DNA of 64,000 bases. Source: Glaucostegus cemiculus (taxonomy: Eukaryota). This document shows positions 6,995-64,000 of this stretch, in pieces. Below the pieces are notes generated by a model. That model saw only the letters and a list, made by a program, of their open reading frames with translations, ran no database searches and was not told where the DNA came from. The number at the start of each line of letters is the position of its first letter. Positions within the stretch are counted from its first letter, which is position 1. Where the stretch lies: positions 1-64,000 of the forward strand of contig CDPCPM010000062.1 of NCBI GenBank assembly GCA_976551045.1, given 5' to 3'. The translations under genes were made by a program, and so were the position numbers.

Positions 6995-8147
6995 TATGTG
7001 ATTTTCTTTTAACAAAATAGATGATGCACTACTTGCCTTGCTAATTTGGACATAAATATTTTTGTTAAAAAAGTCATTGCACTAAAAATTTTAATATATA
7101 TCTTTAGGTTAAATTGCACATATTTCAGATGTGATTATCAATATGACATTCTGTAGAAATGTGATAACAGGATACTTTTAATGTTAAGTCCCAAAATCAA
7201 GACTTCTGCAAGGCAGAAAGGTGAACATTCATTCACTGGGATGAAGTAAGCCCCATATTAATTTCTTATGATACTTGTACAAAGTGATAGGAGTTATATG
7301 ATGAAAAGGTGGATTGGCTTTCCAACTTCTTATAATTTCTTACTGATGAATTAAAAATGTAAGCATGCAAGGACGGACAAGGAGTACTCCACATTATGAA
7401 TTATATATTTTCTTACCACTCCTGTCTTTTGATGTTTATCAATTCAAGCTGCAGACCATGCCTGTTTGGAATTAGCCTTACTAGCAGGATAACAAGTGTG
7501 ATCAAACGGAGCTCCTTCCAGGACTGACAGACTGACACTGTCAATTGAATCAGAGCAAAGCAAGAAATGCCACCACTAGCATTGAGCAGAGCTGAGCATC
7601 AGACTTTTTGATTAATAACACAGTATATGGAAACGTACTGTCTCTAGTCTGACACTTTGGAGTGCCCTGCAAGGGCACACAACTTCACCTTTTGTCTTTC
7701 CATTTTTTTTTCCTGGAAAATCTCCTTCCATTTGATTTCTAATTTTTTTTAAACTTTGTTTTGTTTTCCCAAGTCAACCACCCACATCAAAACATTCCTC
7801 TTGCCGGGGGTTGGTCTAAACCATCAACTCTTTCACAGACTTCACTATGTATTTGCCTGACACACTTTCTCGGAGATGATGGCCTCAGCAATGTGGATAA
7901 TTATTTTTTTCAGGGCCAGTTTTTTAAATGTGTTCTCAGAACTACCATTCTCCCCACCACTCACTCTCTCTCCTCCCAACCCAGTTTCCCATCCGGATCC
8001 ACCAGCTAACTATCCCATTAGAGACTGGAAAATGTGCGGCCGTGTGGAAGTCTGAACACAGCCATTTCCAATGCTACATTTCAAGCTCTTTCTCCTGGAT
8101 CAGGTTGCTGTTGCTGTTGCTGTTTCTGTGGCCATCACAGAGCTACT

Positions 8148-8205
8148 TAGAACATAGAACACTACAAGCACAGTACAGGCCCTTCGGCCCACAATGTTGT
8201 GCCAA
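8148..8205 (-). mobile_element. CR1 LINE 3' tail
   Basis: TAGAACATAGAAC...ACAGGCCCTTCGGCCCAC, the reverse complement of the CR1 3' ends elsewhere in the window. Confidence 0.75.
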
Positions 8206-8691
8206 TGTTTCCAGCTGGCATACCTGGTGATGTGATCCCTAAAGTCCCTTTCTTGAATAACATAATCCCCTTCCAAACCTTGGACAATTCTGTAAATGTT
8301 TACAGTAATGTTTTTTTACTTGCGTAATTATGGCACTCATTTAATAGCCAAAATATACACAAAATAGTAAGACAATTTTGTTCATTGCCATAGGTGTCAA
8401 GTGGGCATCATTTTTGACAACTGTTGTATCAACTTTCCAAGATTAAGTTTTGTTGTTAACACTTAACTGATGCATGCATGATCGGAAATTAGCAGGTGTT
8501 TTGTGACACCGATTCCTGTTGGCTCTTTTTGTCAGTTTGCTTTTTGGTCAAAGTTCTGAGTTGCTAATAAAGGTAGTTTTGGAGGCCTGTTGCAGACACC
8601 TGTTTCACAAACTGTTCGGAGCCATGTGTCACAGAGAGCCTAATCCCAGCAGTACTGAACAGTCAGACCTGGGTCAAATACACAGACTGAA

Positions 8692-8708
8692 GGGTCATTG
8701 GCAGTTCA
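8692..8708 (+). promoter_or_regulatory. Consensus DR5 retinoic acid response element
   Basis: GGGTCA-TTGGC-AGTTCA; both half-sites match RG(G/T)TCA with a 5-bp spacer. Function is inferred. Confidence 0.65.
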
Positions 8709-9056
8709 CTGTGTCCGATCTGGCAAGTAGCAAATCCCTCCCTCTTAAAGAGCATTAGCTCCTTCATTGCCTGCTCAGAAAAGAAAATTGACATCCTCCC
8801 AAGAAAAATGTAACTTGAATAGTTTGTGAAATTATAAGCTTGGTTTACAGTGTCAGATTGAAGCATGGTGCTCCATCAAGGCACCTAGACATGAAATTTA
8901 TAGTGAATGAACTAACAGGATTTGTGCAGTGATAGGGTATGGTAAATGAAGATATGTTGTGAGAGCTGACTGCTTTAATTAGTCTAAGATTCTTTAAATA
9001 TTTTAGGTTAAACATTTTTATTCAAACTTTTTTGTTGTTCTTTTTATTGTTACTTA

Positions 9057-9490
9057 AGGCTCAATTGATAGAAGTCACCTCGAAGTCAGAAGGTGAAGGG
9101 TTCAAGTGCCTCTTTAAGTCGAGCACTAATGATGCCGTACTGAAAGAGAGTGTGTTGTATTGTTAAATGGCACTCTTTGAATTCAGTGTTTATTGAGAAT
9201 GGCTTTTACATCAGTTGATAGAGCTGTGATATGATGACATCATTCATTCCATGTGCTCCTGACTATTTGTTCAAGTGGTTGTTAAAGATTCCCCAGCTGC
9301 TATCAGAAGAAGAGTAGGGGGTCCCCCTGACGTTCTCCCTGAAAACATTACTAAAAAGAGATTTATCATTTCTTTCAGTAAAATCTTCTGCTTAAAATGG
9401 CTATAGTGTATCCCTGATTAAATGTAATCATAATGAAAAACTAATATTGCTTATGTGATGTTTTGAAAGACTTGAGAGATATGATTAAGC
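9057..9490 (+). mobile_element. Old tRNA-head SINE with Deu-domain-like core (SacSINE1/AmnSINE-like)
   Basis: A-box-like GGCTCAATTG, B-box-like GGTTCAAGTGCC, core TAAAGATTCCC...GAAGAAGAGTAGGGG; related copies near 10630-10890 and 42635-43318. Confidence 0.6.
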
Positions 9491-9799
9491 TGTACTTAAA
9501 TCCTTTTTACCTTTATGAAAATGATCCTTAGAATGCCATATTAATTGCTCAAAAGTACATTGATACATTTGTAAAATTTTGAGAAACACCTTTATATAAT
9601 ATGGTAAAGCCATGACATAACACTTTGGGTGTGGAATTGTGTTTGGATGAAGTTTGTGTATTGAAAAACTGTTTTGCTCGATTTCATTGCTCTGAAATTC
9701 TTTGAGACCCGTTAATCCCACAAAGAGACCACAGTTACCATGTTCAGATTTCTGCTGGTTTTATAATCTATGCCCCAGAATTACAAGAGCAGTACGATT

Positions 9800-10090
9800 A
9801 TGGTACAACTTTATTAAAAAAAAAACATTGTACTGTGCAATTCTGGTCACCACACCATAGGAAGGATGTGATTGCACTGGAGAGGGTGTGAAGGAGATTG
9901 ACTGGGATGTTGCTGATCAGGTGGTGAATGCAGGTACTCTCATGACATGGAAGAAGTCTCGAGACAGGGGTCTGAATTGCCAAGGTGTAGAATGCTATGA
10001 ACCAAGTGTTGGTAAATGGGATTAGCGTGGTTAGATATTTGATGGTCAGCAAGAATGTGGAGCCTGTTTCTGTGCCGTATGATTGTGACT
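9800..10090 (+). mobile_element. Degraded CR1 3' fragments
   Basis: YCAILVTT/FWSPHHRKDVIALERV-type sequence (TTCTGGTCACCACACCATAGGAAGGATGTGATTGCACTGGAGAGGGTG). Confidence 0.7.
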
Positions 10091-33930: not shown

Positions 33931-34422
<492 letters not shown>

Positions 34423-62853: not shown

Positions 62854-63342
62854 AAAACTTGCATAAATGGAAAGGATAAATTCAGCAAAAACTACATGGC
62901 CATATGAAATTTGCCGGAGCAGATTTTGACTGTGCTGTGTGTGTCTGTGCCTTCATTGAACCTGGTTTGAATGTTAGTGTTCTAGTTGTAGTTCTAGTGT
63001 TGTAGTAATCAAAGTGCTGGGCCAGTGCTGCTTGTACTGCTGTCAGATCTGCTGCATCAACCATGAGGAGCTGCTCCAAGTTTGAGTAAGACTTTTCCAT
63101 CGCATCCACACTGGAATGTGGGTCCAAACTCTGCACAAAGGCCAGTGCCACGTTGGTGCCAGACTTCCTGATGCTGTTTGACATTAAACATTGGCTTCCT
63201 GGCAGATTCCAAATGCACAATGCACTTCTTTGTCCATCTCCTTCGGCCTTCTTGTGTATGTTGGACAGAGTGAGGTCTCGGCTCTCAGTCGAACCTCTGC
63301 ATCTGAACTCATGTATAACATCACCCACTGTTCTGCTGATGT

Positions 63343-64000
63343 GGTGAGGGTGAGGTGAGGGTGAGGTGAGGGTGAGGTGCGGCGAGGGTGAGGCGAGGGT
63401 GAGGGTGAGGGTGAGGGTGAGGTGAGGGTGAGGTGAGGCGAGGGTGAGGTGAGGGTGAGGTGAGGGTGAGGTGAGGGTGAGGTGAGGCGAGGGTGAGGTG
63501 AGGGTGAGGTGAGGGTGAGGTGAGGCGAGGGTGAGGTGCGGCGAGGGTGAGGTGCGGCGAGGGTGAGGGTGAGGGTGAGGTGAGGCGAGGGTGAGGTGAG
63601 GGTGAGGTGAGGGTGAGGTGAGGGTGAGGGTGAGTGTGAGGTGCGGCGAGGGTGAGGTGCGGCGAGGGTGAGGTGAGGCGAGGGTGAGGTGAGGGTGTGG
63701 TGAGGGTGAGGTGAGGGTGAGGTGAGGGTGAGGGTGAGGTGAGGGTGAGGGTGAGTATGAGGTGCGGCGAGGGTGAGGTGCGGCGAGGGTGAGGTGCGGC
63801 GAGGGTGAGGCGAGGGTGAGGTGAGGGTGAGGCGAGGGTGAGGTGAGGTGAGGGTGAGGTGAGGGTGAGGTGAGGTGCGGCGAGGGTGAGGGTGAGGTGA
63901 GGGTGAGGTGAGGGTGAGGTGAGGGTGAGGTGCGGCGAGGGTGAGGTGCGGCGAGGGTGAGGTGCGGCGAGGGTGAGGTGAGGGTGAGGGTGAGGCGAGG
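63343..64000. repeat. G-rich tandem array of GGTGA/GGGTGA/GGCGA/GGTGC units, dominant 11-bp unit GAGGGTGAGGT; continues past the window end
   Basis: Seen directly; at least 658 bp. Confidence 0.97.

Follow-up and report, generated by a model that had tools for sequence, protein, structure and literature searches.

The DNA analyzed here (the window) comprises the first 64 kb of contig C62 in the 2.85-Gb genome assembly of the ray Glaucostegus cemiculus. It holds the start of a retinoid receptor gene, RARB, read on the forward strand: the first coding exon of the beta2 isoform (RARB2), a long first intron, and the next exon. Within that intron lies a perfect DR5, set in a single-copy block that appears to be modestly constrained among close relatives. 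The features referred to below are as follows.

235 to 391, + strand: coding part of the RARB2 first exon (MFDCMDV...), with the donor GT at 392
392 to 34024, + strand: RARB2 first intron (33.6 kb), with the DR5 located 8.3 kb into it
8140 to 8205, no strand assigned: fragment of a high-copy repeat, the nearest repeat, ∼490 bp upstream of the DR5 and outside the element
8463 to 8976, no strand assigned: single-copy block that appears modestly constrained (26 differences and 0 gaps in 514 bp in the relative X8)
8643 to 8857, no strand assigned: least-changed core (the relative X1 has 4 listed differences, none of them in 8729 to 8838); bounds set post hoc, scan p = 0.16
8656 to 8670, − strand: one-mismatch half-sites TGAACA (8656 to 8661) and AGACCT (8665 to 8670), from a motif scan
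8671 to 8676, + strand: third perfect half-site, GGGTCA, 15 bp 5′ of the DR5, at chance level (p about 0.12)
8692 to 8708, + strand: perfect DR5 in gene orientation, with the 5′ half-site GGGTCA, the spacer TTGGC, and the 3′ half-site AGTTCA
34025 to 34173, + strand: next RARB exon, encoding the B region and the first zinc finger (Pfam zf-C4, E = 4e-9)

Homologs of the exon at 34025 to 34173 are mostly named RAR-beta, including a stingray protein (P0117) at 98%. A search with P0117 scores the C62 exons beyond exon 1 at 80 to 98% and those of a paralog on contig C77 at 58 to 88%; where the C77 paralog differs, C62 has the residues of a primate RARB protein (P0109). The top matches of the C62 LBD-hinge exon are solved RAR-beta structures, narrowly ahead of RAR-alpha. 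Because the exon scores, the P0109 residues, and the structure matches favor RARB, the C62 gene is, by sequence comparison, RARB; the C77 paralog is, on the same grounds, most likely RARA. An earlier note on this DNA had placed the DR5 in an intron of RARB, and that assignment is confirmed, the intron being the first of the beta2 isoform. Searches with the RARB exon and the full RARB protein returned only two RAR loci (C62 and C77). Among the scored candidates of these RARB-query searches there was no clear exon set for RARG, which may reflect an assembly gap or a limit of the search. The first coding exon of RARB2 contains one extra base, at 314-315, that puts it out of frame with the stingray and other RARB2 proteins. 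This base is probably an assembly slip; if it is real, the beta2 protein would be lost, which would undercut any self-induction via beta2.

The motif GGGTCA-TTGGC-AGTTCA is read directly from the + strand at 8692-8708, exactly as first described, and consists of two RGKTCA half-sites in direct orientation with a 5-bp spacer. It is the sole RGKTCA direct repeat with a spacer of 0 to 10 in the 64-kb window and the sole perfect DR5 in C62:1-184000. The extra half-sites that had been reported at 8656-8676 are likewise all present, two of them with one mismatch on the minus strand and one perfect; the two at 8656-8661 and 8665-8670 together form an imperfect minus-strand DR3, and 8665-8676 reads as an imperfect ER0. 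Triplets of perfect half-sites within 40 bp occur only twice in 184 kb of C62. The earlier note described a half-site cluster, but its density is at chance level, both for a third perfect half-site within 25 bp (p about 0.12) and for a trio of half-sites, each allowed up to one mismatch, within 36 bp (p about 0.12).

The setting was also said to be unique and free of transposable elements, and within the limits of the searches this is so: a genome search that skipped very common words found no match to 8400-9000 other than itself, and the DR5 with 150 bp on either side matches only itself in 644 kb of genomic DNA compared. A repeat-borne response element of the Alu-DR2 type was rejected on the single genome match and on the unrelated flanks of the second exact copy of the 17-mer described below. 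Rfam models gave 0 matches to 7400-9800 at E ≤ 1, and a structured noncoding RNA was rejected. One of the nine one-mismatch DR2s in the 64-kb window (AGGTGA-AG-GGTTCA, 9091-9104) lies in single-copy DNA 400 bp 3′ of the DR5. Low-complexity tandem repeats occupy the end of the window (about 62900-64000).

Across the 2.85-Gb genome, RGKTCA-N5-RGKTCA occurs 9,407 times, or once per 303 kb; a reversed-motif control occurs 9,222 times, so there is no genome-wide excess of DR5s. The rarity first claimed for the motif, about one per 500 kb, is right as arithmetic for a uniform base composition (524 kb), but the motif is commoner in the real genome. At the rate of one per 303 kb, at least one DR5 would arise by chance in any given 10 kb with a probability of 0.03; the figure is 0.10 for this intron, 0.19 for the 64-kb window, and 0.44 for the 177-kb RARB gene. 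At least one perfect DR5 was present in 20 of 100 shuffles of the window. By these counts, support for the DR5 being more than chance is weak. The exact 17-mer recurs once, at C54:33591673, with 0.57 copies expected by chance; with unrelated flanks and that expectation, this second copy was rejected as a paralog. Inspected by eye, the long frames in the 60 kb around it all look repeat-like or featureless. Perfect DR1, DR2, and DR5 motifs lie within 21 kb around the same copy (C54:33570583-33591689).

Twelve runs from five other organisms share 13 to 40% of the sampled 31-mers of 8540-8860. Relatives were compared over 7400-9800 using X1, X8, X9, and X10 (4 of the 18 runs listed; X7, with a share of 0.13, X2 through X6, and X11 through X18 were left out), and they show 92 to 95% identity. 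X1 spans 8208-9800 as a single contig (90 differences, 20 gaps), X8 spans 8463-8976 (26 differences, gap-free), and X9 spans 8181-9224 (78 differences, 13 gaps); X10 shares words with the region but leaves 8291-9019 uncovered and is not counted as evidence. The X8 block differs at 26 of 514 positions (5.1%), compared with 108 of 1,301 (8.3%) in the five other nonrepeat pieces listed for this relative (Fisher p = 0.01), and has 0 gaps against 24 in those pieces. Ten differences are listed as common to X1, X8, and X9, and none of them falls in 8643-8857 (p = 0.004, for bounds chosen post hoc). The alignments suggest that a block of about 200 to 500 bp is under modest constraint among close relatives. 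A second slow intronic stretch lies at 7400-7750, where three relatives show 4.2 to 4.8% differences.

Both DR5 half-sites are intact in X1, and among the differences listed only the spacer base 8698 is changed inside the DR5. X1 is the sole relative readable there, and at background divergence the probability that all 12 half-site bases stay intact is about 0.5. Over 8540-8860 the X1 list seems to be complete, since the word share that it predicts is 0.30 and the share observed is 0.33; X8 and X9 must carry further differences in the core because their word shares (0.40 and 0.33) fall below the 0.67 expected without such differences. The comparison of X1, X8, and X9 gives no sign of constraint centered on the DR5. 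Depletion of X1 differences has p = 0.47 within 25 bp on either side, 0.19 within 50 bp, and 0.03 within 100 bp, and the X1 scan statistics are nonsignificant (p = 0.12 and 0.16). Over 8470-8870, the interval drawn in the earlier note, X1 has 17 differences in 401 positions compared with 73 in 1,192 (p = 0.10), and changes specific to X1 are not depleted in the core (4 of 215 vs. 5 of 299; p = 0.69). The longest run free of listed differences, 8729-8838, lies 3′ of the DR5, which falls outside it. Cross-species alignment, which had been proposed as a check on the element, thus yields a modestly constrained block and half-sites that are intact in X1 (p about 0.5), but also an upstream half-site (8665-8670) that is degraded in X1, where 8669 C>T adds a second mismatch.

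RARB2 self-induction is textbook positive feedback of RA signaling, and standard RA reporters are built on its promoter RARE. In this assembly the RARB2 promoter is absent where C62 begins, nor was it located anywhere else. The mouse promoter-RARE 17-mer has 0 matches in the assembly, a looser promoter pattern identifies only the RARA2 promoter across the assembly, and nothing in C321:1-200000 resembles the RARA2 promoter. Contig C321 carries the RARB1 first exon, about 192 kb from the contig end, and starts in a G-rich minisatellite (low-complexity tandem repeats at C321:1-900). These repeats probably explain the contig break at the RARB2 promoter, and the promoter itself probably lies in the gap between C321 and C62. 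With the RARB2 promoter missing from the assembly, the promoter RARE, which would be the “first” element, is assumed for this species, and the intronic DR5 can be called a “second” element only on that assumption. Three further perfect DR5s (C321:35047, 59819, and 119377 [minus strand]) lie upstream of the beta2 exon, in the 192 kb that separates the RARB1 exon from the end of C321, the one at C321:35047 being single-copy in the DNA compared. Since these three are in the upstream RARB intron, the DR5 at 8692 is not the sole candidate. A perfect DR1 lies in a later RARB intron (C62:84087). In all, 376 kb of the locus contain four DR5s where 1.24 would be expected (p = 0.04), a mild hint of locus-wide enrichment.

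The RARA2 promoter on C77 has a perfect DR5 with a 3′ AGTTCA half-site (G000:C77:3375896). An imperfect DR5, GGGTCA-TTTGA-AGGTTA, lies 31 bp before it, and the layout includes a TATA-like run (C77:3375865-3375912). The same two-DR5 layout is found in the mammalian RARB2 promoter. The ray RARA2 N terminus resembles that of RARB2 (MFDCMDVL...), which suggests that RARA2 may retain the ancestral form. In 200 kb of RARA there is no perfect intronic DR5, and in 160 kb of the RARA locus nothing resembles the flanks of the DR5 block better than E = 0.06. An element common to RAR paralogs since the vertebrate genome duplications was rejected on the comparison with RARA, which is without a matching intronic element in these stretches. 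By eye, TGAAGGGTCATT, the 12-base stretch that surrounds the 5′ half-site (8688-8699), is identical to C77:3375861-3375872, around the imperfect upstream DR5 of the RARA2 promoter; this identity probably reflects chance or a common flank preference.

Mouse Rarb is described as a direct RA target in the available portions of two studies (PMC7259794 and PMC3091300), the latter of which reports ChIP-seq binding at the Rarb RARE (Mahony 2011, PMC3091300). As far as the accessible text of Berenguer 2020 (PMC7259794) goes, its Rarb entries are a promoter DR5 and an upstream DR1 only, an RA-regulated H3K27ac peak extends about 4 kb into Rarb, and the final spacer base is a purine in 10 of the 12 DR5s of Table 2; the ray spacer ends in C. 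The accessible part of Mahony 2011 (PMC3091300) gives DR5 spacing as the RAR-preferred geometry and counts at least 150,000 good DR2 or DR5 matches that are unbound in mouse. RAR/RXR ChIP-seq in mouse F9 cells has one peak at mm9 chr14:17407797-17408297, taken as the promoter, and no other at chr14:17.37-17.41 Mb among the peaks listed in the portion of the data covered, with ∼0.6 kb of start positions outside the search (Chatagnon 2015, PMC4446430). This interval represents one cell type, and its coverage of mouse intron 1 is estimated from the ray intron size. Looking up the site in ChIP-seq data, another check that had been suggested, therefore bears on a mouse F9 proxy interval and not on an aligned site; it returned the promoter peak, but no intronic peak among those listed. 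No mouse counterpart of the DR5 block was found. The 17-mer has no match in the literature text in either orientation, and the available portions of PMC7156344, PMC11808460, and PMC13274254 contain nothing on the DR5 at 8692-8708. No intronic RARB RARE was found in the literature searched, a scope outside which fall the Lalevee 2011 catalog of conserved DR5s and the Mahony 2011 supplements; either could list a mammalian counterpart.

We tentatively read the DR5 in the RARB2 first intron as a working RARE in a small intronic enhancer that would add to RARB2 self-induction, a candidate to which we give somewhat less than an even chance. An RXR/RAR dimer would sit on the DR5, co-repressors would be swapped for co-activators on the arrival of RA, and the bound complex would contact the beta2 promoter about 9 kb away, so that the intronic element would add to the positive feedback of the promoter RARE. 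The polarity on such a site places RXR on the 5′ GGGTCA and RAR on the 3′ AGTTCA. What we observe is the motif, its position, its host gene, its single-copy setting, and modest local constraint; that the receptors bind it, that it responds to ligand, which promoter it targets, and that this species has a promoter RARE are what we infer. The working-RARE reading is favored because a perfect consensus lies 8.3 kb from the first exon of a gene whose mouse ortholog is a direct RA target, in single-copy, modestly constrained DNA, and because the X1 change listed within the DR5 falls in the spacer and spares the half-sites. The low chance of a DR5 in any given 10 kb, the 31-mers shared with five other organisms, the likeness to the conserved mouse Dhrs3 and Tshz1 DR5s, and the pairing of RAREs at other genes also speak for it. 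It is weakened by the lack of a genome-wide DR5 excess, the roughly even chance of 12 intact bases, the missing RARA counterpart, the promoter peak standing alone in the mouse F9 interval, the position of the invariant run off the DR5, and the stretch at 7400-7750, which changes as little as the block. Further points against it are the many unbound DR2 or DR5 matches in mouse, the lack of an intronic DR5 among the Rarb entries of Berenguer 2020, the C at the end of the spacer, and the nonsignificant X1 tests on the earlier note's interval, close around the DR5, and in the core. The proposal of a second autoregulatory RARB element is thus partly supported: its gene, motif, and single-copy setting stand and the block shows modest constraint, but the motif is commoner than stated, the half-site cluster is at chance level, and the mouse proxy interval shows no intronic peak among those listed. 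The probabilities that we attach to the readings are judgements, raised by the closeness of an RA-target promoter and by the constrained block and lowered by the base rate and the empty mouse interval.

The DR5 may instead be a chance match, one of about 9,400 neutral DR5s that was noticed because its host is RARB, with the slow block reflecting local variation in mutation rate. We consider this somewhat unlikely: a genome count equal to the control, the probabilities for the intron and the gene, the 20 shuffles, the second 17-mer with its unrelated flanks, and the X1 scan statistics all agree with it, but the gap-free 514-bp block with fewer X8 differences (p = 0.01 for substitutions), a core without listed common differences, and the nearby RA-target promoter do not. 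COUP-TFs bind direct repeats of various spacings, and the block could be a constrained intronic enhancer that works chiefly via the 110 bp on the 3′ side of the DR5. The DR5 itself would then be incidental, or would be read not by liganded RAR but by another nuclear receptor, such as COUP-TF or RXR with a different partner. The exclusion of the DR5 from the difference-free run and the mixed geometries upstream (the imperfect DR3 and ER0) would fit such an enhancer; the spacing of exactly 5 between two perfect half-sites is instead the RAR-preferred geometry, the upstream geometries are at chance level, and we regard the account as unlikely. A working RARE could also serve a promoter other than that of RARB2, either RARB1 (>190 kb upstream, with its first exon on C321) or a neighboring gene. 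Long-range intronic RAREs are common, and Berenguer 2020 (PMC7259794), in the part available, assigns RAREs to genes by TAD; no other start is nearly as close as the beta2 first exon, however, and we rate this account as highly improbable.

A broader form of the working-RARE reading, which we hold to be quite improbable, is that the DR5 marks an ancient jawed-vertebrate intronic RARE enhancer that would set the gain of RARB2 self-induction together with the promoter RARE and would have been kept in tetrapods outside F9 cells or lost in mammals. If so, it would have been overlooked since work focused on the promoter element. A second intronic RARE, if real, would provide a tunable input to the RARB2 feedback loop and a testable element for comparing RA wiring between rays or sharks and mammals. 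Even then it would add no new mechanism, second or distal RAREs being known for Cyp26a1, Dhrs3, Cdx1, and the Hoxb genes.

Among known elements, the closest in gene and isoform is the betaRARE, the DR5 of the RARB2 promoter (mm10 chr14:16575513-16575529, PMC7259794), which shares with the ray candidate the DR5 geometry and the 3′ AGTTCA but has a different 5′ half-site and spacer. According to the available text, the betaRARE, a proven enhancer that is occupied in ChIP-seq, sits at the transcription start, whereas the candidate ray DR5 lies 8.3 kb inside intron 1 and not at the beta2 start next to a TATA box. The RARA2 promoter of the same genome likewise has a perfect DR5 with a 3′ AGTTCA at a RAR gene, but that motif is promoter-proximal, just 5′ of the TATA-like run, and the RARB motif is intronic. 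The same half-site pair occurs in the mouse DR5s of Dhrs3 (GGGTCA TTCCA AGTTCA) and Tshz1 (GGGTCA TTCAT AGTTCA), whose first two spacer bases are also those of the ray DR5 (PMC7259794, Table 2). In the portion of that study available, conservation of both extends from mouse to reptile or frog, and both fall within RA-regulated chromatin peaks; conservation of the ray block, unlike theirs, is seen only among species that are 92 to 95% alike. The intronic cRE5 of Dhrs3, as described in the accessible part of PMC11808460, resembles the ray DR5 in lying away from the promoter near an RA-pathway gene. RAREs often act in pairs kilobases apart, as at Cyp26a1 and Hoxb (PMC13277393, available portion); synergy is demonstrated for those pairs and proposed for ray RARB2, and the model is the same, a second RARE kilobases from the first and acting in synergy with it.
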